IMG/VR virus record: IMGVR_UViG_3300045988_019467
DNA from: a virus
Lineage: Duplodnaviria; Heunggongvirae; Uroviricota; Caudoviricetes
Direction: 5' to 3' (one strand)
Length of the DNA: 43,946 bases
Part shown: in pieces, positions 2,655 through 40,092 of the stretch
Position numbering within the stretch: position 1 is the first letter of the stretch
Layout: every line of letters starts with the position of its first letter
Notes under the pieces: model-generated
Told to the model about the DNA's origin: nothing
The model's database searches: none
Seen by the model: only the letters and a program-made list of their open reading frames with translations
Translations under genes and position numbers: made by a program

Positions 2655-2674
2655 AAGGCCCCGAAAGGGGCCTT
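2655..2674. terminator. bidirectional intrinsic terminator hairpin (AAGGCCCC-GAAA-GGGGCCTT)
   Basis: Perfect 8-bp GC-rich stem with GAAA loop, flanked by an A-run upstream and T-rich run downstream; sits between convergent genes; identical 20-mer at 12429..12448. Confidence 0.6.
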
Positions 2675-2678
2675 AATT

Positions 2679-2999
2679 TTATAGCTTAAGTTCTTCCGGC
2701 ACATCCGGCACGGCGTTATATTCCCACCATTCAGAACCATCGTATTCTCCGCGAGAAGACCATGTACCATCTTCGTACCAAATTACCCCGAAGAAGTTTT
2801 GACCGCCATAACCGTTGTGATATTCAAAATCAAGTGCGACCATTAGGCTTTCCCATTCTCCGCGGGAGTAATTCTCCCGCAGGATCCATTTACTCCCCTC
2901 AACGAAACCGTAATCCGCGTCATAGTCTGCAAACCAGGCGCATTTAACTACATCTTTACCATCCAGATGGGCGAGCAACTCTTCTTTAGCATTAATCAT
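2679..2999 (-). CDS. hypothetical small acidic, aromatic-rich protein (moron)
   Basis: 106-aa minus-strand ORF inside the plus-strand head module; strong RBS AAGAGGAAG upstream of ATG 2999; about 22 D/E versus about 8 K/R with many W/Y/F. Confidence 0.55.
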   Translation of the reverse strand: MINAKEELLAHLDGKDVVKCAWFADYDADYGFVEGSKWILRENYSRGEWESLMVALDFEYHNGYGGQNFFGVIWYEDGTWSSRGEYDGSEWWEYNAVPDVPEELKL

Positions 3000-3024
3000 G
3001 TTTTCTTCCTCTTTGCCGTTTAAC

Positions 3025-3056
3025 TGAATAGTACCCTATTATATTGGTGTCTGCAA
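3025..3056 (-). promoter_or_regulatory. class-1 promoter-like element, copy 1 (on minus strand: TTGCAG-N7-TATAAT-AGGGTACTATTCA)
   Basis: Perfect TATAAT on the minus strand about 40 nt upstream of ATG 2999; conserved about 30-bp motif repeated at 5180, 15061, 37806 and 39002, each oriented toward the adjacent operon. Confidence 0.5.
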
Positions 3057-3100
3057 ATATTATTTTTATGCGTTACACTGGCGATACTACAGGAGGGCAC

Positions 3101-4605: not shown

Positions 4606-4608
4606 TAT

Positions 4609-4629
4609 AAGGCCCCTTAACGGGGCCTT
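4609..4629. terminator. bidirectional intrinsic terminator hairpin (AAGGCCCC-TTAAC-GGGGCCTT)
   Basis: GC stem followed by TTAGTTTTATTT; between convergent genes 4147..4605 (+) and 4634..5155 (-); same stem sequence as 2655, 12429 and 24233. Confidence 0.6.
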
Positions 4630-4633
4630 AGTT

Positions 4634-5179: not shown

Positions 5180-5211
5180 TGAATAGTACCCTATTATATT
5201 GGAGTATGCAA
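5180..5211 (-). promoter_or_regulatory. class-1 promoter-like element, copy 2 (on minus strand: TTGCAT-N7-TATAAT-AGGGTACTATTCA)
   Basis: Same motif as 3025..3056; TATAAT on the minus strand about 40 nt upstream of ATG 5155. Confidence 0.5.
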
Positions 5212-5263: not shown

Positions 5264-5306
5264 AACTATTCGAATAGTTGACTTTTCACTAAAAATATGC
5301 TAAGCT
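5264..5306 (+). promoter_or_regulatory. 16-bp perfect palindrome AACTATTCGAATAGTT overlapping a sigma70-like promoter (TTGACT-17-TAAGCT)
   Basis: Perfect palindrome at 5264..5279 built from the same CTATTC/GAATAG half-sites as the repeated operator; TTGACT at 5278..5283 and TAAGCT at 5301..5306. Confidence 0.35.
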
Positions 5307-5487
5307 CCACCTGAGCTTGTGAAGTATGAACAAGCGACCGCGTCGCGGGCAGGTAACGGAGCTGGACGTAAGTCCTGAGTGTAGTTACGCTGACGCGTCC
5401 GGAAGGGCCATACTCTATTGCTTGTGTAAAAAAGTAACTGATTTACTGAGATTACGCCGTTTCTGTGTTTAAATGATAAGGACTAGC

Positions 5488-5512
5488 GCCCCGCTTTAAG
5501 GCGGGGCTTTAC
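5488..5512 (+). terminator. intrinsic terminator or attenuator hairpin just upstream of the spanin genes
   Basis: GCCCCGC-TTTAAG-GCGGGGC stem-loop followed by TTTACTT; lies 20 nt before the i-spanin RBS. Confidence 0.4.
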
Positions 5513-5531
5513 TTATCGAGAAAGGAGAAAC

Positions 5532-5918
5532 ATGAATCTTAAAGCAACTGTCGTAGCGGGAGCATGTTTCATCATCCTGGCTTACGCACACGGCATCTAC
5601 CAGTACCACAGCGGCTGGAACGAAGGCCGGGCGAATCTCGTTTCGCAGCAACAGCAGAAAGCACAGGCTGAGTTAGCGAAGAAAACACAACGGCAGCAGC
5701 AAGATGAATCGAAGGCCGCAGCCGCCGACAACGAAGGCAAGACGAAATCAGAGGTGATTACCCGTGAAGTCGTTAAGTACATTAAAACGCCTGGCCGCAG
5801 CGTGTGCACTTTCGACGATGCTCGCGTCCTGCTCAAGTCCCGCGCCGTCGCAAACGCCAATTCCATCCCCGGATACGACAATGATGCAGCCTCCGTGCAA
5901 ACTGGCGCCGCCAAGTAG
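5532..5918 (+). CDS. i-spanin (Rz-like inner-membrane spanin)
   Basis: N-terminal transmembrane helix (VVAGACFIILAYAHGIY) followed by a Q/A/K-rich coiled-coil-like region; an o-spanin-like lipoprotein ORF overlaps its 3' end in another frame; RBS AAAGGAGA. Confidence 0.65.
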   Translation: MNLKATVVAGACFIILAYAHGIYQYHSGWNEGRANLVSQQQQKAQAELAKKTQRQQQDESKAAAADNEGKTKSEVITREVVKYIKTPGRSVCTFDDARVLLKSRAVANANSIPGYDNDAASVQTGAAK

Positions 5919-8683: not shown

Positions 8684-8863
8684 ATGGCAGATAATTATGT
8701 AATCCGCGAAAAATACACCCACGTTGATGTTGTTGACGGTCAGGTGATACCAGTTCGCGGTGTTGTAGAAGCGGACGAGCTGGTTGCAACCCAACCGGAC
8801 AGCGAAGAAGCGCACAACAACGGCGGCGGTACTAAGCGTCGTCGCCGTAAGTCAGAGGAATAA
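8684..8863 (+). CDS. small hypothetical protein with basic C-terminus (KRRRRK)
   Basis: 59-codon ORF with RBS AAGGAAAGG; fills the gap between neighbouring + genes; preceded by a GC hairpin at 8652..8669. Confidence 0.35.
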   Translation: MADNYVIREKYTHVDVVDGQVIPVRGVVEADELVATQPDSEEAHNNGGGTKRRRRKSEE

Positions 8864-11255: not shown

Positions 11256-12424
11256 ATATGGCTACAACTCCTTTTAAGGGCGCGACTACCGCGCAATTCT
11301 ATGTGGCGGAAACTACCCCTGGCGTAACACCGACTAACCCGGTATGGTCGCCGTTGCGTAACACAGGTGGCGTTCCTGCTATTACCCGTGACACGCTGAC
11401 CTCCAACGAACTGGACGGCAGCCGTGAAACTACATCCATCCGAACCGGTAACAAACAGGTTAGCGGTGAATACGCGGTCGAGCTTAGCTCTAAAAGCCAG
11501 GACGACTGGCTGGCGGGTGCTTTAGGCTCTACGTGGCAATCCGGTGTTTCTCTGTCGGGGCTGTCGATTACCGTCGCACCGGTGGGCAAGACGTTCACCC
11601 GTGCCGAAGGTAGCTTTATTACTGACGGTGTGGAAGTAGGCGACCTGATTGCGTTTACTGACTTAACCGGCGATAACGCTAAACCGTTTATTGTTACTGC
11701 GGTAGAGGCACTGGTGGTAACTGGTGCGGGTATTCAACACACTCTGATCGCCGAGACTGCTACTACCGCGGCTAAGACCGGCGACAAACTGGAAACCGGC
11801 AGCCAGTGTAAGACGTTCTCTATTCTCACCTGGTACAAGGGCCAGTGCGGCGGGACAGACGCGTACACGCTTACCAAAGGCGTGGAAGTTTCTGGTTTCA
11901 CTGTTGAACAGGCCGTTAACGCGATGGTGACGGGCAGCTTCCCGTTCATCGGGCGCAGCCAGGAGATTCTTACCGCGGCGCCGTCTGGTTCCGACTTCTC
12001 CTCTGTTACGTTTGGTGACGAGCCGTTCTCCTCGGTTGACGTTTCCGTGTTCGATGGTTCTACGCCGTTGCGTTGCGACAGCCTGACCATCACCAACGAC
12101 AACAGCGCGTCCGCACAGTTCGAACTCGGCAACACTAACGTTGCATTTGTTGAGCGTAGCCGCGCGGCTAACACCTTCTCTATCTCTGGCAAGCTGTACG
12201 ACATGGCGATGATTCAGAAGTTTATCAACGAACAGCAGGTAGAGATTAACTCTATTCTGGCTGGGGTAAACGGGGCTATGTCTTTCAGTTTGAAACGTGC
12301 AGAACTCACGGCGGTCACACCGGAGATTGGCGGACCTGAGTCAATCACTCAGTCTATTGAAGGCCAGGCTACTGGCAACCAGTACCAGTCGTCTATTGTT
12401 ATCCAGCGTATCACCTACGCATAA
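11252..12424 (+). CDS. major tail (tube) protein (putative)
   Basis: 390-aa Thr/Ser/Gly-rich ORF between neck genes and the tail chaperone/tape measure genes; followed by a strong terminator. Confidence 0.5.
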   Translation: MNMATTPFKGATTAQFYVAETTPGVTPTNPVWSPLRNTGGVPAITRDTLTSNELDGSRETTSIRTGNKQVSGEYAVELSSKSQDDWLAGALGSTWQSGVSLSGLSITVAPVGKTFTRAEGSFITDGVEVGDLIAFTDLTGDNAKPFIVTAVEALVVTGAGIQHTLIAETATTAAKTGDKLETGSQCKTFSILTWYKGQCGGTDAYTLTKGVEVSGFTVEQAVNAMVTGSFPFIGRSQEILTAAPSGSDFSSVTFGDEPFSSVDVSVFDGSTPLRCDSLTITNDNSASAQFELGNTNVAFVERSRAANTFSISGKLYDMAMIQKFINEQQVEINSILAGVNGAMSFSLKRAELTAVTPEIGGPESITQSIEGQATGNQYQSSIVIQRITYA

Positions 12425-12428
12425 AACT

Positions 12429-12454
12429 AAGGCCCCGAAAGGGGCCTTTTTCTT
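12429..12454. terminator. bidirectional intrinsic terminator (AAGGCCCC-GAAA-GGGGCCTT + TTTTTCTT)
   Basis: 20-mer identical to 2655..2674 followed by a T-run; separates the tail tube gene from the convergent moron operon. Confidence 0.65.
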
Positions 12455-15060: not shown

Positions 15061-15092
15061 TGAATAGTACCCTATTATATTGGGGTGTGCAA
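15061..15092 (-). promoter_or_regulatory. class-1 promoter-like element, copy 3 (on minus strand: TTGCAC-N7-TATAAT-AGGGTACTATTCA)
   Basis: Same conserved motif; TATAAT on the minus strand about 40 nt upstream of ATG 15033. Confidence 0.5.
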
Positions 15093-19687: not shown

Positions 19688-22224
19688 TCCTGCACTACAC
19701 GCGAAATGCTAACGGTGTTTTCGACCGTACAAAACACGTCGGGATGCCAATGGAGTTTGTTGTTAACCATATCCCTGACGGCGTTCCTGTGCGCGTATAT
19801 CTCGGTGAGATTGGTGACGACACCGATATCACTGACGACTTCGACGCGCTTAAAGACGAAGACGCGGTGTATCACATAGTAGAAGGAGCTGGTGGAGGTG
19901 CGCTTGTAGTAGGTGCGCTTGTTGCTTTGGTCGTCGTTGCGGCTACGGTTTTACTAACTAAGAAACCGAGTCTGGCGGTAACAGCGACAAATAACCAAGC
20001 AAAATCCGCTAATAACAGCCTAACAGACCGCTCCAACAAGCCGCGTCCTTACGAGCGCTCTTATGACATATGCGGGACTGTGCAGACAATCCCTAACGAC
20101 CTTATGCAGACGTACAAGGCGTTCAACTCCACTGGTGCTTTGCTGGAGTATTCGTACTATGACGCTGGTCGCGGGCATCTGCATATTGAGGCTGATGGCG
20201 TCACGGAAGGCGACACCCTGATAAGCGACATCACAGGTTCTTCTGTTGCCGTGTACGCCCCCTATACATCACCAAACAATACAACTACCCCGCAACTACA
20301 AATCGGCGACGTCATTGACCAGAAACTCTATGTGACGTACTCCAACGACGACGTTGACGGTATTGTACTGAAAGCACCGAACGATATCGGGGCCAACCCA
20401 AGCGCCGACGGCACCGCTAAACGTATTTCAAACACCGGCTACATCTATGACCCGTCAGGAGACTCTGCTTTTTCTGAGTTTCTTAGCGTCGGTGATGTGG
20501 CGGTGCTGAGCAACTTTGACGTTGCGGATGTCACTAACCTGAACGGCTCGTTTGAGGTTTTATACGTTGACGACTTCGAAGTAAGATTAGCCGTAAACGG
20601 TGCGTCTAACTGGGCCGCGTTGACCAGCGGACAGACGTACACGCTAACAGAGCGTTCAGATACGTTTATCGGCCCGAGCAACACATATGACGTATCTCTT
20701 ACGGACTGGTATTACATGGTACGCGGAGAAGTTGACCGGGTACTTGCTAACGTTGCCGGGCAGAACGGCCTCTACAAATACGACGGCGGCTATAACCGTA
20801 CCAGCGTAACCGTAGAACTCCAGTATCAGATGATTGACTCTCAGCGTAACCCGTTGGGCGATATTTACACGGTACAGGCTACAATTACAGGCAACAATAC
20901 GGATTACGTCGGTACGTCTATCTATGGCCAATTGCCGACAGCGTCTCGTTTCCGTGCCCGCATGCGCCGCGTAACGAATTTCGACAAGGACTACGACGGG
21001 ACGGTAAGTGACGAGATAACCTTCATCAACCTGTACGGGCAGTCACTGGACACAACCCCACACTACGGCAACCGAACTACCGTACATTGTGCCCGTAAAC
21101 AGACGCCGCGCGCTGCCAGTATTGATAACCCTGAACTGCGCATGATCGCGACCGAGATGTGCTACAAATACTTAGGCAATGGGGTATTCGATACGGTAAT
21201 GACACCAAACACTCAGGCCGTGCAGTCGCTAATCAGGCTGGCGCGCGACCCGGCGGTGGGTAATCTGGAACTGACAACGGCAAACATGGATAAGTTACTA
21301 TCCGTGCAGGAAGAAATAGAGTCCTATTTCGGAAGTGAATTAGCGGGGCAGTTCTGCTACACGTTCGACGACTACGACACCACGATGCAGGACATCGTTC
21401 AGACCATAGCGGAAGCCGTGTTCTGTACTGCGTACCGTAAAGGCGCGGATATTATGCTGCGATTCGACCGTCCTGTCGCGGGGCCTGAAATGGTATTCAC
21501 ACACCGCAGTAAGACAACTGGTACGGAGAAATGGACCCGCACGTTCAACGATTCGACAACCTACGATAGCCTGTCGTTCTCGTACATTGACCCTGATACT
21601 AACGTACAGGAAACGATTTATATCCCGGAAGAACTCGGCGCAAACACCGAGGAGTACGAATCGAAGGGGGTGCGCAACTACCAGCAGGCGTACTGGCTGG
21701 CGTGGCGCCGCTACCAGCGCAACACGTTAAGTAAAGTTGTCGTAGAGTTTGAAGCTACGGAAGAAGGTGCGCTCGCCACCCCCGGCGGGGTAATCAGCGT
21801 TGTTAAAGGCTCTCGCATTGCGCCGCAAGATGGTTATGTTGTTGCCGTTAATGGGCTTACACTGACATTGTCCCAGCCTGTTACGTTTACCCCCGGAGAC
21901 GACCACTCCATCATTCTTAAGAAGCGCGACGGCTCCGTACAGAGTATCTCCGTTATCAAAGGAAGTCATGACCGCGAAGTGGTTATGCTCTCCGCGCCGG
22001 AGGAGGCAATCTACACGGGGAATAGCGCGCTAAAAACTGAGTTTTCATTCGGCAACGAAGCAAGGCATAATGCTCAGAAGATAGTTGTTTCTTCAATAGA
22101 CCCGGGCGATGACCGCACGGTCAAGATTACTGGCTACAACTATGACGACGGATTCTATAAATACGACGGCGTCGCACCTTTAGGCCGCGGTTTCTCCGAC
22201 GGATTCAGCAATGGTTTTAATTAA
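19678..22224 (+). CDS. tail tip protein: gpI-like N-terminal segment fused to a host-specificity gpJ-like region
   Basis: N-terminal region ends in a Gly-rich hydrophobic stretch (GAGGGALVVGALVALVVVAATVLL); downstream RARMRRVT resembles the lambda J IRMRRMT motif; start uncertain (TTG 19678 or ATG 19744). Confidence 0.55.
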   Translation: MAIILHYTRNANGVFDRTKHVGMPMEFVVNHIPDGVPVRVYLGEIGDDTDITDDFDALKDEDAVYHIVEGAGGGALVVGALVALVVVAATVLLTKKPSLAVTATNNQAKSANNSLTDRSNKPRPYERSYDICGTVQTIPNDLMQTYKAFNSTGALLEYSYYDAGRGHLHIEADGVTEGDTLISDITGSSVAVYAPYTSPNNTTTPQLQIGDVIDQKLYVTYSNDDVDGIVLKAPNDIGANPSADGTAKRISNTGYIYDPSGDSAFSEFLSVGDVAVLSNFDVADVTNLNGSFEVLYVDDFEVRLAVNGASNWAALTSGQTYTLTERSDTFIGPSNTYDVSLTDWYYMVRGEVDRVLANVAGQNGLYKYDGGYNRTSVTVELQYQMIDSQRNPLGDIYTVQATITGNNTDYVGTSIYGQLPTASRFRARMRRVTNFDKDYDGTVSDEITFINLYGQSLDTTPHYGNRTTVHCARKQTPRAASIDNPELRMIATEMCYKYLGNGVFDTVMTPNTQAVQSLIRLARDPAVGNLELTTANMDKLLSVQEEIESYFGSELAGQFCYTFDDYDTTMQDIVQTIAEAVFCTAYRKGADIMLRFDRPVAGPEMVFTHRSKTTGTEKWTRTFNDSTTYDSLSFSYIDPDTNVQETIYIPEELGANTEEYESKGVRNYQQAYWLAWRRYQRNTLSKVVVEFEATEEGALATPGGVISVVKGSRIAPQDGYVVAVNGLTLTLSQPVTFTPGDDHSIILKKRDGSVQSISVIKGSHDREVVMLSAPEEAIYTGNSALKTEFSFGNEARHNAQKIVVSSIDPGDDRTVKITGYNYDDGFYKYDGVAPLGRGFSDGFSNGFN

Positions 22225-24228: not shown

Positions 24229-24232
24229 AACT

Positions 24233-24258
24233 AAGGCCCCAAACGGGGCCTTTTCTCT
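24233..24258. terminator. bidirectional intrinsic terminator (AAGGCCCC-AAAC-GGGGCCTT + TTCTCT)
   Basis: Same stem as 2655, 4609 and 12429; between the tail fibre gene and the convergent minus-strand replication module. Confidence 0.6.
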
Positions 24259-27323: not shown

Positions 27324-27340
27324 TAAGGCCCCGAAGGGCC
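27324..27340 (-). other. intergenic GC hairpin (AGGCCC-CGAA-GGGCCT), possible attenuator or RNA stability element
   Basis: Stem-loop between two co-oriented genes, without a clear U-tract. Confidence 0.3.
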
Positions 27341-27344
27341 TGTA

Positions 27345-27599
27345 TTAGTTAGATAATTCGGCTTGAACTTGCTTAATAAGTTCTCCAGCCGTTGTGAAAT
27401 CTACAGACAGCCCTTTAGCGACGTCTTCCGCAAGCACCTTGCGGCCAACTGACCCGAAACCGAGAATACGGTTTACTTCCGAAACCTTCATAGACCATGA
27501 GTAATTAGCTGACGCTCCTGTGTATTTACAGATACGAACAGATGAATCGATTGAACCCATAACCATGGTGTTTACTGACAGTTGAAGTTCGATAGCCAT
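27345..27599 (-). CDS. hypothetical protein
   Basis: 84-aa ORF with RBS AAGGAA, downstream of class-2 promoter copy 7. Confidence 0.4.
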   Translation of the reverse strand: MAIELQLSVNTMVMGSIDSSVRICKYTGASANYSWSMKVSEVNRILGFGSVGRKVLAEDVAKGLSVDFTTAGELIKQVQAELSN

Positions 27600-27600
27600 T

Positions 27601-27918
27601 TTATAATTCCTTATATTGTTGGGGTATGTGCTTACTATAATAGTTCGCTATTAGGGTGTCAACCTGTTTTATCGAACCAACGACAAAAACATTTGCACCG
27701 CGTTTACGCATACGCTCATGCTCTCGTAACTGGTGGGGGTCTGGCTTCGTGTTTTCGTCTTTCTTAACCTCGACGAACCAGACGATGCTGTAGGGGAGAA
27801 TTACCAGCAGGTCAGGAGCGCCCACTCTATTTTCGTAGGAAAGTTTACGAACGAGGCCCCCCAGGGCCTCGAATCGCTCTTTTGCGTATTTCTGCACGCG
27901 CCCCTCAGGCGTACTCAT
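27601..27918 (-). CDS. VRR-NUC domain nuclease (PD-(D/E)xK fold)
   Basis: PD...(D/E)xK-like signature (GAPDLLVIL ... VEVKK) in an approximately 105-aa protein; start taken at ATG 27918. Confidence 0.55.
   Translation of the reverse strand: MSTPEGRVQKYAKERFEALGGLVRKLSYENRVGAPDLLVILPYSIVWFVEVKKDENTKPDPHQLREHERMRKRGANVFVVGSIKQVDTLIANYYSKHIPQQYKEL
27623..27662 (-). promoter_or_regulatory. class-2 promoter, copy 7 (minus strand: TTGACACC-N12-TATTATAGT), inside the 3' end of the VRR-NUC CDS
   Basis: Minus-strand TTGACA (plus 27657..27662) and TATAGT (plus 27634..27639) with about 18-bp spacer; near-identical elements at 31214..31242 and 34199..34228. Confidence 0.5.
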
Positions 27919-27994
27919 AATACACACCCCTCACGTTTCGTATGTTCAATCCCGCAGCGCGGACAGATTCGACAGTCTTCTTCGTAGAACCAAT

Positions 27995-28132
27995 AAATTT
28001 TCACTCCATCACCCACAGATAAATTGCGATGAACATGCCCAATACAGCAACCATCATGCTGTATTGACTCTCGTGACAGTAGACACCGGCGGCGAATCCC
28101 GCCAGTACCGCAATAATCAGTTTACTTGGCAT
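27995..28132 (-). CDS. small hydrophobic protein (putative, very short)
   Basis: 45-aa ORF with two hydrophobic segments between the DNA polymerase and VRR-NUC genes; too short for confident calling. Confidence 0.2.
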
Positions 28133-30323
28133 AGCGTTTTAACTCCTGACCTTCTGCTACAAGAGGGAACCCTTCAGCCCACTCAGGCAACGCGCACATT
28201 AATTTTTCCAGTTCAGCCACCGTGTACTCGGGGGTGTCCGGAGTTTCACATACCAGTTCATCGTGTACCGAAAGCACGATGGGGTACCCGCCGCCCTCAA
28301 CATTAATCATCGCATATGCGAGTAAATCACGGCACAGCGCCTGAACAATGTTTTCGCAGGCTTTGCCGCCGTGGGTGTACAGGGTAGTCCATTGACGGGT
28401 TAACTGGTTTTCGCCCTGATACTTGATTCGCACATTCGTATTCACCCGTCCATCTTCATCTGTTTCCTTTGTCACACTAACGCCGATTCCCGGATACGAG
28501 AGGACGCGACCTGACGGCAACTCCATGCATAACCACCAACCAGGAACCTTCCTGCCGGATGAATCAAATTCTACCGTACGCCATATGCGGATAGCCCTTC
28601 CCCCCTTCCTGCGCAAGTGTGCTCCCGCCCAAAATTCACGACCAGGATTACGAACAGCGGCTAAAATTCCGTCTTTAAGGTCGCGCCAGAACGCTACTGT
28701 TTCCGGGTGTGACTCGCGCCACATACGCTTGATTGCGTCGCAGGTACGCCACACCTTCTTGTCCAGAATATACGACGGTCGGTCGTCCTTTTCACCAGGA
28801 TGTGGTGGTCGCTTTGCTTCCTGGATACGCGCCCATTCATAACCACGTGCAGTAGCCGCCCATATATGATCAGGGAAAGTCCCGTCCATTGTTTTTGCCA
28901 TCTCAATAAGGTCAAGACCTAAATTTTTAGCGAACGTAACGAACGCTCCGACGCCCCCCTCGTAGCCGAGGCCAAGCTCGCAGGCCTTGCCTATCTGTCT
29001 GATTTCCTTGAAGTTTTTCTTAATATCATCTGGGTCCATGCCGAACATCTTACCCGCGGTTACACAGTAAATATCAAGGCCGGCGCGGAACGTATCGAGC
29101 GCGGTTTCTTCACCGGCTAGCCACGCTAAACCGCGACCTTCGACGTTAGAATAATCGGCAACAACAAACTTATGTCCTGCTTCCGGTATGATGCAGCTAC
29201 GCACTGTCGACGCCGTTAGCTTGGCTACGTCGAAACGGCGATGAGCACGACCCTTAAGTAACGCAGAAATGCCTTTATCCAGTTCATCATCGTGATAGTA
29301 ACCGCGCGCCAGGTTCTGTGGCTGGAAGCCTTTACCTGCCCATCGCAGGGTACGTTTTGCTCCGCCGTACTGTAAGCAACCGCGGCGTCGGTCGTCCGAA
29401 GAGCGACCCAACAGCAGCGGGTTATATTTCGTTGATGCGGTGGACGCAGCCCCGAGGCGCATTTCGATAATCGCGCGGGCGTCGTCCGGTAAATCGTCGT
29501 TGGCAAGCAGGTCGTTAAGCGTTGACTTCTGCGCGTTGTGGATTCGGTGTGCTGGTGCGAGTTCCCGCAAAATAGGCAGAAAGTCCTTTCCAGTAAGCGA
29601 GCCGCCGTATTTGCGCTGTGCTTCTTCCTGTAACTGCGCTTTGTGTTTCTCCACGGCTTCAATCGCGGCTTCCGCCAGTGCGACGTCAACCTTAAAGCCT
29701 CGGTCGTTGATTAACTGGTCCAGTTCCAGCACACGGTCCTCAAACTCGGAGTTACCCCAACGCGGCAGCTTATGGAAGACTTCACGCATTGCGGTGATGT
29801 CGCTAACGGCGTACTTGATGAACAGCGCCCACTCGTCTGGGTGCGTTTCTGCGGTGTAACGGCGGATTTTGTAGTTCTTCGGTGTTGGTTTAGAGAAACG
29901 CTGAATCAGCGCCTTACCGCGTTTGTCTTTTGCATTGTCCGCGGATACGCCAAGCACTTCGCACAAGGCATCAAGAGAACCCGGCAGCGCGTGACGAAAC
30001 GCCCAAATCATCGTATCAATGGTGTTGCTCACCGGAATATCAAAGTCCCAACAGTGCTTCATGATGAGCCTGTCGAACATTGATCCGTTGTGCCACACCA
30101 TCTTGATACGGCTGTTCGGCTTAACCAGGCGGCGTAGAGCGCGGTGCAAATCCCCCGGCATGTCGCTGCCATCGGTGCAATCCCACACCTGCACAGGCTC
30201 GTCATCGAAAGCATAGGTACAGATTAGCACTTCGGTAGTTGGGTGTTCTGCGTAAGCATAGGAACCGACTTTCTTTAAATCGGCTTCGGAGAATGTTTCA
30301 AAGTCCAGGTATAAGTAGCTCAT
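28122..30323 (-). CDS. DNA polymerase, family A (Pol I-like) with N-terminal 3'-5' exonuclease domain
   Basis: N-terminal exonuclease motif LYLDFETFS (DxE); C-terminal polymerase motif C (VLSVHDELVCE); 733 aa. Confidence 0.8.
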   Translation of the reverse strand: MSYLYLDFETFSEADLKKVGSYAYAEHPTTEVLICTYAFDDEPVQVWDCTDGSDMPGDLHRALRRLVKPNSRIKMVWHNGSMFDRLIMKHCWDFDIPVSNTIDTMIWAFRHALPGSLDALCEVLGVSADNAKDKRGKALIQRFSKPTPKNYKIRRYTAETHPDEWALFIKYAVSDITAMREVFHKLPRWGNSEFEDRVLELDQLINDRGFKVDVALAEAAIEAVEKHKAQLQEEAQRKYGGSLTGKDFLPILRELAPAHRIHNAQKSTLNDLLANDDLPDDARAIIEMRLGAASTASTKYNPLLLGRSSDDRRRGCLQYGGAKRTLRWAGKGFQPQNLARGYYHDDELDKGISALLKGRAHRRFDVAKLTASTVRSCIIPEAGHKFVVADYSNVEGRGLAWLAGEETALDTFRAGLDIYCVTAGKMFGMDPDDIKKNFKEIRQIGKACELGLGYEGGVGAFVTFAKNLGLDLIEMAKTMDGTFPDHIWAATARGYEWARIQEAKRPPHPGEKDDRPSYILDKKVWRTCDAIKRMWRESHPETVAFWRDLKDGILAAVRNPGREFWAGAHLRRKGGRAIRIWRTVEFDSSGRKVPGWWLCMELPSGRVLSYPGIGVSVTKETDEDGRVNTNVRIKYQGENQLTRQWTTLYTHGGKACENIVQALCRDLLAYAMINVEGGGYPIVLSVHDELVCETPDTPEYTVAELEKLMCALPEWAEGFPLVAEGQELKRYAK

Positions 30324-30475: not shown

Positions 30476-30495
30476 TATTTTCGACCCTTAGTAAA

Positions 30496-30515
30496 AAGGC
30501 CCAATGAAGGGCCTT
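30496..30515 (-). terminator. intrinsic terminator-like hairpin after the SSB-like gene
   Basis: AAGGCCC/GGGCCTT stem followed on the minus strand by TTTTTAC. Confidence 0.4.
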
Positions 30516-30534: not shown

Positions 30535-31161
30535 TTAACGGCGACGACGTTCACGGCGTGGTGCTCCATCTTCTTCGTCGTCTTCCAGGTCGTCGACACT
30601 TGCGGCGACTTTAGAGCCGCCGAACGCTTTACCTTCGCCGACGTATTTAATGGCCAGCAGGTTAACGCCGAGAACTTTGTATTTCTGGCTAAACCAGATT
30701 TCAACGCTTACGTTGGCAACACAGCCACTGTAAACCTGTTCGCCTTCAATCTGTTCTCCGTCTACATTAAAGTCCTGCTCTACCTGAGTCTCACCTTTTT
30801 TAGAGGTTACAATCAGTGGCTGTTTCTGTGCCTTCGCTTTGAAGTAGAATCCTTCCGGGAAATCTTCAAACGGATTGTCGCGCTCAGCAATATCTTTAAT
30901 CGCACATTTATCCATGTGCTTACCCTCGCCGTAGTTGGATTTCATCCATTTCTCGGCAGCGGCTGCGCCTAACGCTTCTTCAACTACGGCGTAAACAGTG
31001 TCGTAGAGCGCATCGATTTGAGCATGGTCAGACGGCAGGATAATAGTCGCGCTGTACTGGCCTTTAGTGATTGAGCCATCATCGTTTTCACGGTCTTTTT
31101 CGCGTTCGAATACGTTAACCCATGCAGTGTTTACTTTACGCAGATTCAGTTTCAGTCCCAT
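30535..31161 (-). CDS. single-stranded DNA-binding protein, T7 gp2.5-like (putative)
   Basis: Size, position upstream of the DNA polymerase, and an FGG-plus-acidic stretch (AFGGSKVAASVDDLEDDEEDG) recalled as similar to the gp2.5 C-terminal region; basic extreme C-terminus is atypical. Confidence 0.4.
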   Translation of the reverse strand: MGLKLNLRKVNTAWVNVFEREKDRENDDGSITKGQYSATIILPSDHAQIDALYDTVYAVVEEALGAAAAEKWMKSNYGEGKHMDKCAIKDIAERDNPFEDFPEGFYFKAKAQKQPLIVTSKKGETQVEQDFNVDGEQIEGEQVYSGCVANVSVEIWFSQKYKVLGVNLLAIKYVGEGKAFGGSKVAASVDDLEDDEEDGAPRRERRRR

Positions 31162-31213
31162 TTGATTTCTCGCTTTTAAGTTTACTCCGGGAGCTGCCCG
31201 GCCAGTGATTAGA

Positions 31214-31242
31214 ACTATAATAGCTAACTATTCAGGTGTCAA
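31214..31242 (-). promoter_or_regulatory. class-2 promoter, copy 8 (minus strand: TTGACACC-N12-TATTATAGT)
   Basis: Minus-strand TTGACA (plus 31237..31242) and TATAGT (plus 31214..31219); about 50 nt upstream of the SSB-like ATG at 31161. Confidence 0.5.
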
Positions 31243-32644: not shown

Positions 32645-33153
32645 TTCTCAGCCCCGTTAACTGTAAACCCATATTTAATCTCGGCTTGCCTACGAGCCTT
32701 AGCCGCGTTCTCTAACTTATCGTAGGCCCCTAAATAAATCGGCCTGCCGTCTACATAAATTCTCGCGACCCACTTACCGTAGCGTTTATGAAACCCAACA
32801 CCTTTAACCCCTGAAGTATTGTCCGTCCGTATGTTGGTGCCGTGTGCGATACTACCTCGGCGCATTTTTATAAGATTTTCTATTCTGTTATCAGTTCTAT
32901 CTTTATTTTTATGACGAATTACTTCCCCCGGCGCTATCGGCCCGTTAAACATCTCCCAAACTACGTGGTGGATAAGTTTAGTAGTCCCGTTAAAACGTAG
33001 TATTTTAAATTCACTCCCGTCGTTGTCCTCCCTCGTACTGCCAGCTTCTTGCCCTATTTTTACAGATTTTGACGGACTTATTTTCCAAAATAATTTACCG
33101 GTATCAGGGTCATAGTCAAAAACTTCATGCCAATTCATACTCTGCTCTCCCAC
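32641..33153 (-). CDS. HNH homing endonuclease with AP2-type DNA-binding domain
   Basis: HNH-like motif (IRHKNKDRTDNRIENL) and AP2-like segment (GVKGVGFHKRYGKWVARIYVDGRPIYLGAY). Confidence 0.65.
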   Translation of the reverse strand: MGEQSMNWHEVFDYDPDTGKLFWKISPSKSVKIGQEAGSTREDNDGSEFKILRFNGTTKLIHHVVWEMFNGPIAPGEVIRHKNKDRTDNRIENLIKMRRGSIAHGTNIRTDNTSGVKGVGFHKRYGKWVARIYVDGRPIYLGAYDKLENAAKARRQAEIKYGFTVNGAEK

Positions 33154-33419: not shown

Positions 33420-33443
33420 CAGTTTGGTGCCCTCAATAGCGAG
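33420..33443 (-). other. perfect 9-bp stem hairpin (GGTGCCCTC-N6-GAGGGCACC) in intergenic spacer
   Basis: Perfect inverted repeat between two co-oriented minus-strand genes; no U-tract. Confidence 0.35.
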
Positions 33444-33462
33444 GGCACCATAAGTTAAGTAG

Positions 33463-33990
33463 TTATTCTTCTTCGAAATACTTGTTCTTGATTGCCGTGA
33501 GGCGTTCCAGATATTCAGCCAGGTCTTCGTCTTTAATCGCGGCAATCTTCATTTTCTTACCGGTGAACTCTTCCAGTATTTCATCGGAATCGTCGCACGC
33601 GGCATCGCTCGGACCTTCGTTAATCGCATCGTCGATAGCCTGAATCTGGTCACGCAGAGACTGGTAATCGACTTCTTCTTCCGGCTCCGGTGTTGGTTCC
33701 TCTACAGGTTTAGGGGCTGGTTTTGATTTGCCAGGCTTGCGTTTCGGCTTCTCATCTTCTGCCGGTTTAGTGTCAACGACGTCTTCACCTTCAACCGGGA
33801 TTTCTTTCGCCTTCTCGACTTCTTCAAGTGCTTTAGCCAGTTCTTTTTTAACTGTCTCTACCCCCGTTACCGCGACGTCAACAGTCAATTCACCTACAGA
33901 TTTATTAGTCGGTTGTTTCACACTGTTCGCAGCAATCAGTTCATGCGCAACTACGAAACGTTCCAGTAATACTAAGAATTTCTCTAACAT
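33463..33990 (-). CDS. hypothetical acidic, Pro/Glu/Lys-rich protein
   Basis: 175-aa ORF with low-complexity PKPx/EEE region; stop and start coupled to neighbours. Confidence 0.45.
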   Translation of the reverse strand: MLEKFLVLLERFVVAHELIAANSVKQPTNKSVGELTVDVAVTGVETVKKELAKALEEVEKAKEIPVEGEDVVDTKPAEDEKPKRKPGKSKPAPKPVEEPTPEPEEEVDYQSLRDQIQAIDDAINEGPSDAACDDSDEILEEFTGKKMKIAAIKDEDLAEYLERLTAIKNKYFEEE

Positions 33991-34166
33991 TATTTGTTCT
34001 CCTGTTCGGCGATATTGTTAAGTTCTTTAAGAATGTCTTTCTGCATGTTTTCGGGTAAGAAACGGAATGCCTGAGTAATCATACCTTCAACATCCCCACG
34101 TCCTTCTAGGATGACGTTGGGAAACCACACTTTCCAGTTAGCATCATAATCTTTACGTTTAGCCAT
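33990..34166 (-). CDS. small hypothetical protein (first gene of leftward operon)
   Basis: 58-aa ORF with RBS GAGAGGAAAG downstream of class-2 promoter copy 6; stop overlaps the next ATG (TAATG). Confidence 0.4.
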   Translation of the reverse strand: MAKRKDYDANWKVWFPNVILEGRGDVEGMITQAFRFLPENMQKDILKELNNIAEQENK

Positions 34167-34187: not shown

Positions 34188-34228
34188 GGTATGTGCTAAC
34201 TATAATAGCGAACTATTCATGGTGTCAA
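34188..34228 (-). promoter_or_regulatory. class-2 promoter, copy 6 (minus strand: TTGACACC-N13-TATTATAGT)
   Basis: Minus-strand TTGACA (plus 34223..34228) and TATAGT (plus 34199..34204); divergent from the Cro-like gene. Confidence 0.5.
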
Positions 34229-34292
34229 TGGGCTTTTCTAAAATAATTAATATGGTACTATTCACATATCAACTGACTAAGGAGTAATTGAC

Positions 34293-34508
34293 ATGCAACC
34301 ATCTGAACTAGGCATCCGTGTAGAACAACGCCGTAAAGAACTCGGTATCTCCCAGCGCCGTCTGGCTGTCCTGACCGGCGTTTCTCAGGGCGCGATTAAC
34401 CAACTGGCACTTGGGGTAACTCAGGACGTCCGCCCGGCGACGCTGTTTAAACTGGCGGAAGTGCTGGAAGTAGACGCTAAGTGGCTGGCGTTCGGTGAAG
34501 GGGCTTAA
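34293..34508 (+). CDS. XRE-family HTH transcriptional regulator (Cro/CI-like)
   Basis: Classic HTH_XRE pattern (ELGISQRRLAVLTGVSQGAINQLALG); RBS AAGGAG; transcribed opposite to the surrounding replication operon. Confidence 0.7.
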   Translation: MQPSELGIRVEQRRKELGISQRRLAVLTGVSQGAINQLALGVTQDVRPATLFKLAEVLEVDAKWLAFGEGA

Positions 34509-34524
34509 TGCCCCTTTCTTTTTA
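34498..34524 (+). terminator. intrinsic terminator of the Cro-like gene
   Basis: AAGGGGC-TTAAT-GCCCCTT stem overlapping the stop codon, followed by TCTTTTTA. Confidence 0.5.
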
Positions 34525-36825: not shown

Positions 36826-37059
36826 TTATTCCAGGTCTTCTAAAGTAGCGGTCATTCCGCGAACTTCGGCAACGGCACTATATTTCCCGCCAACATTTTT
36901 CACGACACCGGATTTAACCAGTACACGTAACGACCCTTCAATAATGGCTGAACTATAGTACTTAAAATAACTACGGCGCAAGTCCATAACGCTGCACGAC
37001 CTTTTTTTACGGGTTAATGAAACGACCGCCGTAAATACGCGTGACTGGAACTCTGTCAT
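36826..37059 (-). CDS. hypothetical protein (C-terminal ...TLEDLE)
   Basis: 77-aa ORF; ATG overlaps the stop of the upstream gene (ATGA). Confidence 0.4.
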   Translation of the reverse strand: MTEFQSRVFTAVVSLTRKKRSCSVMDLRRSYFKYYSSAIIEGSLRVLVKSGVVKNVGGKYSAVAEVRGMTATLEDLE

Positions 37060-37226
37060 TTCACATTCTCCTTAATCCAGGCTTCCACTTTCTCCGGGTC
37101 AAACGTACCGGGCTGACGACGACCCATAATACGGATACAGCAATCAGGGAACTTCCCACTCTTTAACCAGTTATTCAGCGTGCGACGAGTAACCCCGATA
37201 CGCTCAGCTACTTCATTCTGCGTCAT
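37056..37226 (-). CDS. small HTH DNA-binding protein (AlpA/excisionase-like fold, putative regulator)
   Basis: 56-aa ORF with HTH-like segment (QNEVAERIGVTRRTLNNWLKSGKFP). Confidence 0.4.
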   Translation of the reverse strand: MTQNEVAERIGVTRRTLNNWLKSGKFPDCCIRIMGRRQPGTFDPEKVEAWIKENVK

Positions 37227-37805: not shown

Positions 37806-37838
37806 CTTGCGCACCCCAACATAATAGGATACTATTCA
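37806..37838 (+). promoter_or_regulatory. class-1 promoter-like element, copy 4 (TTGCGC-N7-CATAAT-AGGATACTATTCA)
   Basis: Same motif as the minus-strand copies, here on the + strand about 45 nt upstream of ATG 37870. Confidence 0.5.
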
Positions 37839-38840: not shown

Positions 38841-38885
38841 CAGGTGGTGTAACAGGTCAATAGCTTACTATTTTACTGAGTGACT

Positions 38886-38925
38886 TACGCTGCTACACAG
38901 CAGCGTATCATTTTTCTCATTTTTG
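38886..38925 (+). terminator. intrinsic terminator (TACGCTGCT-ACAC-AGCAGCGTA + T-rich tail)
   Basis: 9-bp perfect stem followed by TCATTTTTCTCATTTTTG. Confidence 0.6.
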
Positions 38926-39001: not shown

Positions 39002-39033
39002 TTGCACACTGGGATAGAATAGGCTACTATTCA
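39002..39033 (+). promoter_or_regulatory. class-1 promoter-like element, copy 5 (TTGCAC-N7-TAGAAT-AGGCTACTATTCA)
   Basis: Same motif; + strand, about 45 nt upstream of ATG 39062 and just after the terminator. Confidence 0.5.
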
Positions 39034-39799: not shown

Positions 39800-40092
39800 T
39801 GTCTCTTGCAACTGACATCCTGAAACGAAGCGGCCTTGCGCCGCTGTCGCCGAGGGCAAACACACGGATATACAAGCGCCGCCGTAATGCGCTGTACCCA
39901 GAGATTCAGGCCAGACGCAAAGCTATCCGCGCCTGTGGATTCCAGAACGGTAAGGCCGTGAACCTCGGTGAGTTTAAAACACAGGAACGTGCGGCTATCG
40001 CTAATCGGCTATTTAATTACTGGAAATCGCTGGGGTACGAGGATATTCCGACGAAACCGCAGAGACGACAATACATCTGGAGACACAAATAA
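39796..40092 (+). CDS. hypothetical basic protein
   Basis: 98-aa ORF with ATGA overlap to the previous gene. Confidence 0.4.
   Translation: MMSLATDILKRSGLAPLSPRANTRIYKRRRNALYPEIQARRKAIRACGFQNGKAVNLGEFKTQERAAIANRLFNYWKSLGYEDIPTKPQRRQYIWRHK

Follow-up and report, generated by a model that had tools for sequence, protein, structure and literature searches.

The stretch of DNA analyzed here, virus record IMGVR_UViG_3300045988_019467 (43,946 bp, referred to below as the window), comprises all or nearly all of the genome of a Kagunavirus-like siphophage (Guernseyvirinae). This report concerns three near-identical promoter sites on its minus strand, termed class 2, and a palindrome in their spacers that recurs at other sites in the window. 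The layout was read by homology with the annotations of phages Bas75 and Jersey. Packaging, head, and tail genes occupy the plus strand from ~15 to 24,228 and are broken by three small minus-strand islands; a leftward replication/recombination module extends from 24,391 to ~37,836, and the remainder holds rightward small early genes, lysis genes, and other small genes. The replication module is 86 to 91% identical to that of the Escherichia phages ZCEC5, K1G/K1H, and Bas70-75, with the Salmonella Jerseyvirus relatives farther off. The genes that an earlier note on this DNA had named in it were correctly assigned: HNH_3(+AP2), DUF2800/PD-(D/E)XK exonuclease, Enc34/gp2.5-type SSB, PolA, C5-MTase, SNF2 helicase, and Toprim. 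Integrase and other lysogeny genes are reported to be absent from published Kagunaviruses.

Three putative sigma70 promoters in the leftward module

The pattern on which the earlier note had based its three promoters, TTGACACC-N12/13-TATTATAGT, occurs in three exact copies in the window, all on the minus strand, compared with 0.00 expected from 100 dinucleotide shuffles. Its functional hexamers are TTGACA (-35, 6/6 consensus positions in all three copies) and TATAGT (-10, 5/6 in all three), and the spacers of copies 1, 2, and 3 measure 17, 17, and 18 nt, i.e., within 17 ± 1 bp. The sites are as follows.

27634-27662, minus strand: copy 1, within the 3' end of the VRR-NUC gene; -35 at 27657-27662, palindrome AATAGCGAACTATT at 27639-27652, -10 at 27634-27639; predicted transcription start site (TSS) at ~27627; downstream, orf84 (27345-27599) and the following genes
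31214-31242, minus strand: copy 2, upstream of the gp2.5/Enc34-type SSB gene (30535-31161); -35 at 31237-31242, palindrome AATAGTTAGCTATT at 31219-31232, -10 at 31214-31219
34199-34228, minus strand: copy 3, upstream of orf58 (33990-34166), orf175, and the HNH and exonuclease genes; -35 at 34223-34228, 18-nt spacer with palindrome AATAGTTCGCTATT at 34204-34217, -10 at 34199-34204; UP-like A/T tract upstream

In a scan with the sigma70 consensus, these copies were the top three hits and the sole 11/12 matches in 44 kb, the rest reaching at most 10/12. Each is followed on the same strand by a start codon bearing a Shine-Dalgarno (SD) sequence, 38 to 58 nt beyond the palindrome (orf84 at 27599, SSB at 31161, orf58 at 34166). 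The -35 of copy 2 overlaps the stop codon of a 52-amino-acid (aa) open reading frame (ORF). All three are unidirectional: the opposite strand has TATAAT, but neither a -35 nor a gene. The initial transcribed sequence AGCACATACC, which had been described as shared, is present right after the -10 in copies 1 and 3, but at copy 1 it is not conserved as such in relatives.

To place the sites in a wider context, 78 loci around the exonuclease gene (given L numbers below) were gathered from viral metagenomes and genomes, with protein identities between 44 and 96%. Each Kaguna- or Jersey-like locus (at least 73% identity) with enough flank carries the three sites in the same positions, and both positions and sequences of all three are conserved in ~50 Kagunavirus and Jerseyvirus genomes, i.e., in two genera; phage Jersey has the same promoter trio. 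Among 115 distinct sequences from relatives, the -35 reads TTGACA, TTGACG, TTGATA, TTGACT, or TTGCAT, and 113 of the 115 have TATAGT or TATATT as their -10. The intergenic DNA at copy 3 is 92 to 98% identical among 119 phage records. A promoter at the position of copy 2 is retained in every relative down to 44% exonuclease identity. Best consensus matches, placement of SD and start codons, conservation in ~50 genomes, and the annotation of the homologues of copies 1 and 2 in Jersey together indicate that these are very probably genuine host sigma70 promoters, as had been proposed, and we consider it highly likely that all three initiate transcription by the host sigma70 holoenzyme.

Two other promoter types were considered. 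MerR-type promoters, with an activator bound to the spacer, were ruled out, as the spacers here measure 17 to 18 bp versus 19 to 20 bp for that type. The reading as promoters of a phage RNA polymerase (RNAP), known from PHIRE predictions in the group, was rejected: neither an RNAP nor a sigma gene figures among the 81 annotated features of Bas75 or the 75 of Jersey, both close relatives; only some of the window's own ORFs were scanned.

A palindrome shared by two promoter classes

The spacer had previously been treated as neutral, a view that the sequence does not support. Every class-2 spacer holds AATAG-N4-CTATT (14 bp, -25 to -12), the last T of which is the first T of TATAGT. The window contains 10 exact copies of this palindrome, compared with 0.04 expected. 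Among the 115 sequences from relatives, the arms are ~95% intact, with 7 to 11 different central tetranucleotides per site; the register between palindrome and -10 is invariant, and 4 or 5 nt separate the -35 from the palindrome. Contacts with sigma70 leave the conservation at -25 to -13 unexplained; the simplest reading is that of a second ligand, and the palindrome probably binds a phage protein.

Five other copies (at 3027, 5182, 15063, 37823, and 39018) lie within a conserved block of ~32 bp, which defines the class-1 modules. Read on one strand, the block is GAATAGTAnCCTATTAT(A/G)TTGGnGTnTGCAA, i.e., the class-2 register with a good -10 and no -35. On the other strand it forms a complete sigma70-like promoter, TTGCnn-N17-TACTATTCA, whose -10 lies within the left arm (5 matches versus 0 expected), and a divergent gene starts 27 to 34 nt from the left arm in all five modules. 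On their forward side, the modules place a -35-less TATATT/TATGTT promoter before the head, capsid, and tail operons and the helicase-primase gene. The reverse promoters and one related site are located as follows.

3025-3056, minus strand: reverse promoter, TTGCnn-N17-TACTAT
5180-5211, minus strand: reverse promoter, same pattern
15061-15092, minus strand: reverse promoter, same pattern
37807-37838, plus strand: reverse promoter, same pattern; rightward, TTGCGC-N17-TACTAT toward small genes from 37870; leftward, TCGATA-N17-TATGTT in class-2 register toward orf55/74, HTH_17, orf77, and helicase-primase
39002-39033, plus strand: reverse promoter, same pattern
34249-34262, plus strand: degenerate palindrome AATATGGTACTATT, 45 bp from the copy 3 palindrome; its TACTAT -10 lies 34 nt upstream of the HTH_3 gene, and its forward -10 has decayed

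At the 39018 module and the degenerate 34249 site, the reverse promoter alone is intact and there is no forward gene. The 5' untranslated regions (5'UTRs) that follow class-2 -10s and reverse-promoter -10s are homologous (A(Y)ACCAAACGAGAGGAG), which supports the hexamer assignments. The minus-strand islands are bounded by bidirectional terminators, AAGGCCCC-GAAA-GGGGCCTT, so that head and tail transcription depends on the -35-less forward promoters to resume. Because the palindrome is shared, class 1 and class 2 can be regarded as one regulatory system, in which class 2 would be the -35-bearing, unidirectional member of a single promoter/operator set.

Several further observations concern this set of elements. 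The island terminator is found at 2655-2674 and again at 12429-12448, with a similar form at 4608-4630. The 3027 module, a 106-aa minus-strand gene (2679-2999), and the terminator at 2655-2674 are absent from Bas75; this segment (2655-3100) is a moron-like insertion that brought its own bidirectional promoter. Two exact palindromes lack a recognizable promoter: that at 38859-38872 lies beside a terminator (38886-38907) and ~150 bp away from the 39018 module, with a counterpart in locus L016, and may be an auxiliary operator, and that at 21315-21328, inside a tail gene and absent from Bas75, is probably due to chance. At 5264-5306 on the plus strand, a perfect 16-bp palindrome with the arms in reversed arrangement (AACTATTC|GAATAGTT) abuts and overlaps the -35 of a further sigma70-like promoter, TTGACT-N17-TAAGCT; a strong hairpin (5488-5507) and the genes for spanin, scaffold, and capsid follow downstream, and the site is also conserved in Bas75. 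In the Jersey-like locus L033, the copy 3 palindrome AATAGAGTACGATT (8783-8796) is the exact reverse complement of the copy 2 palindrome AATCGTACTCTATT (11283-11296), consistent with orientation-independent recognition or inter-copy exchange.

A full-length match to the Rfam int-alpA RNA (RF02996; 15111-15175, plus strand; 36.6 bits, gathering cutoff 35.8, E = 4.6e-4) lies ~35 nt beyond the forward -10 of the 15063 module, in the leader of the operon for the tail chaperone and tape measure. Its sequence is conserved in Bas75 and Jersey, where two pairs of the first inner hairpin are compensatory; both homologues score below the Rfam threshold. A role of this leader RNA as a promoter-proximal terminator was rejected: its structure is conserved in Bas75 and Jersey, though its U-rich tail is not.

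Another repeated word in distant clades

Relatives with at most 58% exonuclease identity are without the palindrome, yet sigma70-like promoters remain at the SSB position, together with a conserved 5'UTR hairpin, and at the end of VRR-NUC. These clades carry another 8-mer, GCAACCAA, 10 to 14 times per 21 kb (~0.6 expected by a naive uniform-composition estimate). It either occupies promoter spacers, immediately 5' of the -10, or covers the -35, and it also forms tandem pairs and sometimes the inverted pair GCAACCAA-N4-TTGGTTGC. That the distant clades keep the promoters in place but with another over-represented word argues for co-evolving, clade-specific factor sites rather than drift.

The word was found in L051-L059, L062-L076, and L075 (Dhillonvirus-like and two other clades), for instance at 5477-5914, 8783, 11654-11677, and 20564-20590 of L062. 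A candidate reader is HK578 gp45, a 142-aa protein with a C-terminal HTH_23/sigma-region-4-like motif encoded beside helicase-primase (HK578 annotation and Pfam). An all-against-all ORF comparison made for such a reader in the distant clades was too noisy, owing to antisense ORFs.

A probable promoter inside the VRR-NUC coding sequence

The VRR-NUC ORF (27601-27918) encodes 105 aa and matches Pfam VRR_NUC weakly and the PHROG 93 endonuclease family with E = 4e-31. As claimed, copy 1 lies within its last ~60 nt, which encode ...KQVDTLIANYYSKH.... The further proposal, that this stretch is constrained both as protein and as promoter, stands in that synonymous variation is lowered at the promoter codons; the "IKQVDTLIANYYSKH" tail itself is only partly constrained as protein. 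In a codon alignment of VRR-NUC from 45 distinct relatives, third-position entropy of the last 12 codons was 0.231, the lowest among 82 segments of 12 codons and well below the gene mean of 0.707. The fixed codons are GTT for Val, the rare ATA for Ile, TAT-TAT for Tyr-Tyr, and AGT for Ser, with Leu encoded by CTA or TTA only. Residues in the same stretch vary, with 5 amino acids found after the -35 and 6 at the center of the palindrome. Selection at the level of DNA is thus demonstrable, since codons are fixed while amino acids vary at noncritical positions, and the gene offers a clean natural case of a promoter kept inside a coding sequence at a measurable codon-level cost.

Most relatives end VRR-NUC with a TAG directly after TATAGT (...LIANYYS*). 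In the window, AAG replaces that TAG and gives a 10-codon C-terminal extension, KHIPQQYKEL (27601-27633), that extends across the 5'UTR and SD of orf84 into an overlap with the start of that gene (TAAAATG). The extension is read-through into the 5'UTR of the next gene and not conserved protein. Distant clades have TTGnnn-N17-TA(T/G)(A/T)(G/A)T in the same place, within a homologous C-terminal helix (...QVD.L(I/V)AE...), and the internal promoter at this end of the gene is therefore old.

As to the surroundings, ATG 27918 is a likelier start of VRR-NUC than GTG at 27927, and two unannotated-looking mini-ORFs lie between DNA polymerase and VRR-NUC (27928-28131, minus strand), one for a hydrophobic peptide of ~43 aa that overlaps the polymerase stop and one for a Cys-rich peptide of ~30 aa (CxxC...C).

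Transcription units and terminators

Division of the leftward module into three transcription units, as originally suggested, proved too simple. Terminators were sought by a relaxed hairpin-plus-U scan of the minus strand and by direct reading, which gave the following structures.

24229-24255, minus strand: terminator, GGCCCC-gttt-GGGGCC followed by TTAGTTT; end of the leftward module, convergent with the tailspike gene
27326-27341, minus strand: hairpin GGCCC-UUCG-GGGCC after orf84, the first gene below copy 1; it has no U tract and hence is no canonical terminator
30493-30513, minus strand: canonical intrinsic terminator, GGCCC-ttcatt-GGGCC followed by TTTTT, between the SSB gene and orf51/DNA polymerase
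31187-31201, minus strand: GC hairpin CCGGG-cagct-CCCGG in the 5'UTR of the SSB mRNA, ~+10 to +30 from the predicted start of copy 2
34497-34517, both strands: hairpin common to the convergent helicase-primase (minus) and HTH_3 (plus) genes; U tract on the plus strand only

No terminator was seen on the minus strand from polymerase to VRR-NUC or from exonuclease to copy 2. Copies 1 and 2 therefore add to incoming transcription rather than start isolated units. Because of the terminator at 30493-30513, SSB forms a promoter-gene-terminator unit and polymerase relies on read-through, which suggests attenuation setting a high SSB:polymerase ratio. Moreover, the module reaches upstream of copy 3, where a promoter at ~37823-37836 drives HTH_17, helicase-primase, and small genes. 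The SSB 5'UTR hairpin is kept in all clades down to 44% exonuclease identity (L004, L042, L050-L077), with compensatory changes in 2 of its 5 pairs (CCGGG/CCCGG, CTCGG/CCGAG, CGGGGT/ACCCCG), and may be an mRNA stabilizer or an autoregulatory operator.

The SSB gene also illustrates mosaicism: its product (30535-31161) is 98.6% identical to that of Salmonella phage Jersey (L082, 32243-32869), while flanking proteins are 64 to 88% identical. Repeated promoters and terminators lie at module boundaries and might serve as recombination linkers.

Candidate readers of the palindrome

Two small genes with helix-turn-helix (HTH) products are candidates for the protein that would read the palindrome.

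37056-37226, minus strand: HTH_17 gene, 56 aa, excisionase/AlpA/MerR-like winged helix; favored candidate
34293-34508, plus strand: HTH_3 gene, 71 aa, Cro/C1-type (DicA-like), divergent from copy 3 and convergent with helicase-primase; less favored candidate

HTH_17 exceeds its Pfam cutoff (31.6 versus 27 bits) and matches PHROG 66, "excisionase and transcriptional regulator," whereas the NCBIfam "excise" match is below cutoff; its signature, GKFP...G.R...F...VEAWI, is AlpA/Xis-like. Comparison with solved structures returned insignificant HTH matches only. A tblastn search detected the gene in those palindrome-bearing loci whose flanks were long enough, but not in L050-L079. The Kaguna and Jersey genera have the same HTH in it (GVTRRTLNNWL), and the whole protein is 87.5% identical to its Jersey homologue, compared with 64 to 66% for its neighbors. 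HTH_3, on the other hand, is only 49% identical between the genera, among the lowest values in the genome; its recognition helix reads SQGAINQL in Kaguna- and SQSLITHL in Jerseyviruses, though the palindrome arms are identical, and homologues of ~41% identity occur in relatives without the palindrome. HTH_17 is thus favored over HTH_3 as the putative reader, because it tracks the palindrome-bearing loci, has an identical HTH in both genera, and is more conserved than its neighbors. The sites of the host factors CRP, Fis, IHF, LexA, ArgR, and TrpR were considered as well, and none appears to fit the conserved arms; the TrpR operator, CTAG-N4-CTAG, resembles ATAG-N4-CTAT.

Proposed mechanism and alternatives

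The explanation that we prefer as a whole, and to which we give about an even chance, is that sigma70 promoters feed blocks of the leftward module and that each carries an operator for a dimeric phage protein. Copy 3 would feed the early small genes, HNH, and exonuclease; copy 2 would feed SSB, with an attenuating terminator ahead of DNA polymerase; and copy 1 would act as an internal booster in VRR-NUC for orf84, MTase, SNF2 helicase, and Toprim. The palindrome would be bound by a dimer encoded by the phage, with HTH_17 as the favored binder and HTH_3 as the alternative. Once bound, this factor would shut the reverse (early) promoters, whose TACTAT -10 overlaps the palindrome, and would support or permit the forward ones. 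A factor compatible with or positive for the forward promoters is favored because the register is fixed and the same site precedes the -35-less late promoters. Class-2 promoters would fire both before and after such a switch, because they possess a consensus -35.

A bolder form of this explanation is doubtful in our judgment. It holds that HTH_17 alone runs the whole temporal program of a virulent siphophage without an RNAP or sigma factor of its own: seated beside the -10 in a fixed register, it would silence the early reverse promoters, enable the -35-less forward late promoters, and leave the class-2 promoters active at all times. In related clades (Dhillonvirus-like and others), GCAACCAA and a different reader would serve the same architecture, amounting to a family-wide "promoter-spacer code."

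Several points weigh against the preferred explanation and its favored reader. The intermediate relatives L050 and L056 keep palindrome-like sites, and no HTH_17 was detected in the parts of these contigs that were examined; gene order in L056 is rearranged. A wider search of viral collections with HTH_17 returned the same Kaguna/Jersey genomes only, so that its clade restriction is no independent test, and its conservation could reflect another function. The HTH_3 gene, in turn, physically adjoins two of the sites. Furthermore, a consensus promoter with a 17-bp spacer needs no activator, and a protein bound at class-2 sites would classically repress. Gene conversion between repeated cassettes could help arm conservation within one genome. 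Finally, the sole transcriptome of the group is gene level, spans several infection cycles (5 to 120 min), and classes DNA polymerase and MTase as "late" (PMC12645636).

Among the alternatives, the one that survives best, although we consider it unlikely, is Cro-type shut-off. The palindrome would then be a repressor operator for a dimer of early-made HTH_3, which would repress its own promoter, copies 1 to 3, and the bidirectional modules and thereby limit or end early and middle transcription. The layout, two palindromes within 65 bp of intergenic DNA and an HTH_3 gene divergent from copy 3, resembles that of cI/cro-OR. Dimers of the Cro/C1 kind would suit a 14-bp site whose 5-bp arms are ~9 bp apart, as in the 434 and lambda operators. 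Annotators name the gene repressor, Cro, or DicA, and an HTH-domain gene, vB_Eco_K1B4_008, possibly the counterpart of HTH_3, is among the four earliest genes in K1B4 RNA-seq. The palindrome also spans the spacer and -12 of strong promoters, a position at which bound proteins normally occlude RNAP; occlusion, however, does not require the strictly fixed register between operator and -10, and a pure repressor would give the -35-less late promoters, which have the same site in the same register, no mechanism of activation. A recognition helix that differs between clades with identical arms, the low identity between genera, and homologues in palindrome-less clades likewise speak against HTH_3 as the reader.

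A loading site of the Q/AlpA kind is improbable. Here, the palindrome would recruit HTH_17 to initiating RNAP and so produce terminator-resistant elongation, the hairpins to be read through being the SSB terminator, the UUCG hairpin after orf84, and a hairpin at ~33427-33450. In agreement with this, a GC-rich hairpin follows each class-2 promoter after one to two genes, a canonical terminator splits SSB from polymerase, and 13 and 23 rho-independent terminators have been predicted in published analyses of Kagunavirus genomes; the hairpins downstream, however, are mostly without U tracts. In AlpA, the ring in the RNA exit channel is reportedly assigned to an N-terminal segment. HTH_17, despite its AlpA/Xis-like signature, is a bare 56-aa winged-helix domain without an extra segment like the ring-forming one of AlpA (PMC9371919), and profile searches found no Phage_AlpA or Q family match (in Pfam, HTH_17 only). 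P. aeruginosa AlpA, of the same broad class as HTH_17, binds between the -35 and -10 of sigma70 promoters (PMC7969949). The element analyzed here has the same placement, in strong promoters of constitutive appearance, as the Q-binding element (QBE) of lambda and the AlpA-binding element (ABE) of P. aeruginosa (PMC7969949), but it is symmetric and the ABE (GGGACG-N5-GGTA) is not. Its overlap with the reverse-promoter -10 fits occlusion rather than loading, and no sigma-dependent pause element was evident by eye in the initial transcribed regions.

Somewhat less probable still are plain constitutive sigma70 promoters, in which a palindrome without a ligand would be a relic of duplicated cassettes, maintained by recombination or concerted evolution, or would tune the shape of spacer DNA. 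Strong promoters need no more than these hexamers and this spacing, class-2 and reverse class-1 promoters are followed by 5'UTRs that are recognizably homologous cassettes, and the mosaicism seen at SSB makes cassette exchange plausible. Yet neither drift nor gene conversion would leave precisely two symmetric 5-mers untouched while the centers diverged to 7 to 11 variants per site, and in VRR-NUC the rare codons ATA and CTA are fixed, keeping the arms while amino acids change. The excess of exact palindromes, orphan sites without promoters included, and the different repeated word in the same places of distant clades also argue against this explanation. That the sites are not promoters at all, but boundary repeats for recombination or module exchange or targets of phage nucleases or methylases, is very hard to credit even in a mosaic genome that has repeats at its module boundaries and encodes HNH, VRR-NUC, and C5-MTase enzymes, given the perfect -35 in all three copies, the right spacing, the orientation matching the downstream genes, the right distance to SD and ATG, and the persistence of promoters in position in clades with changed sequence.

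Significance and comparison with known systems

Kagunaviruses and Jerseyviruses rank with the most frequent isolates in phage biocontrol and therapy of E. coli and Salmonella, and their transcription program has never been mapped. In the literature on their transcription we found PHIRE or consensus predictions and one gene-level RNA-seq study (PMC12645636), and no TSS mapping or binding study; a search for the motif as text gave nothing relevant. Published annotations conflict, with "host promoters" in one paper and "phage-RNAP promoters" in another. The present analysis provides a testable wiring diagram that comprises about ten putative operators, defined terminators, and two or three proteins as candidate readers, and also compact, host-RNAP-dependent, probably switchable promoter parts for phage engineering. 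Were the palindrome a plain Cro-type operator, the finding would be routine, and its interest is moderate to low unless the single-factor switch model is true.

A close precedent is the record of phage Jersey (GenBank KF148055). It annotates a promoter at 29238-29266 inside the VRR-NUC gene Jersey_39 (TTGATA-N17-TATATT), which is the homologue of copy 1, another at 32925-32953 upstream of the SSB homologue (TTGACA-N17-TATAGT), which is that of copy 2, and a reverse promoter of a bidirectional module at 39893-39920, there with a perfect TTGACA. These are pattern matches only ("similar to TTGACA(N15-18)TATAAT"), however; the copy 3 homologue is unannotated, and the record is silent on the spacer palindrome, the dual coding constraint, and the link to other repeats.

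For the Kagunavirus fBC-Eco01, PHIRE yielded the motif tgAATAGTa-ccTATTat-T, ascribed to a phage-encoded RNAP (PMC9825357), and a related paper gives seven PHIRE promoters (PMC7203180). The fBC-Eco01 motif has the same repeated core, in seven copies matching class-1 module positions, and PP4 (ATAATAGTTTGCTATTATGT) is the homologue of copy 1. Unlike here, the palindrome, the TTGACA-bearing subclass, and the opposite-strand promoter were not noted in that paper.

With the lambda QBE at PR' and the P. aeruginosa ABE of PalpB/PPA0807 (PMC7969949, PMC9371919), the sites described here share a spacer site in a competent sigma70 promoter, terminator-like hairpins downstream, and an excisionase/AlpA-like candidate reader. 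They differ in that the site is a symmetric 14-bp palindrome at ~10 places that overlaps divergent -10s, that the candidate has a minimal 56 aa, and that no pause element was recognized. The lambdoid Cro/CI operators (lambda, 434, and P22) likewise place a short-armed 14-bp dyad over a core promoter, and there too a small Cro/DicA-like HTH gene is divergent with two intergenic sites; in contrast to them, the phages here are virulent, the putative operators are distributed genome-wide in a fixed -10 register, late operons included, and HTH_3 is poorly conserved compared with the invariant operator.

Bidirectional promoters arising from -10 symmetry were reportedly described by Warman et al. in 2021 in Nat Microbiol. 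The class-1 blocks (~32 bp) resemble these in their overlapping, opposed promoter elements, whereas class-2 promoters are unidirectional and the symmetry is that of an extra palindrome, not of the -10 hexamers alone. Compared with all of these systems, what was already known is the existence of the promoters, two of the three at least, as predictions in relatives; what is new is a conserved spacer element, the putative operator, that links them to a genome-wide bidirectional promoter system, and the quantified constraint that an in-gene promoter imposes.

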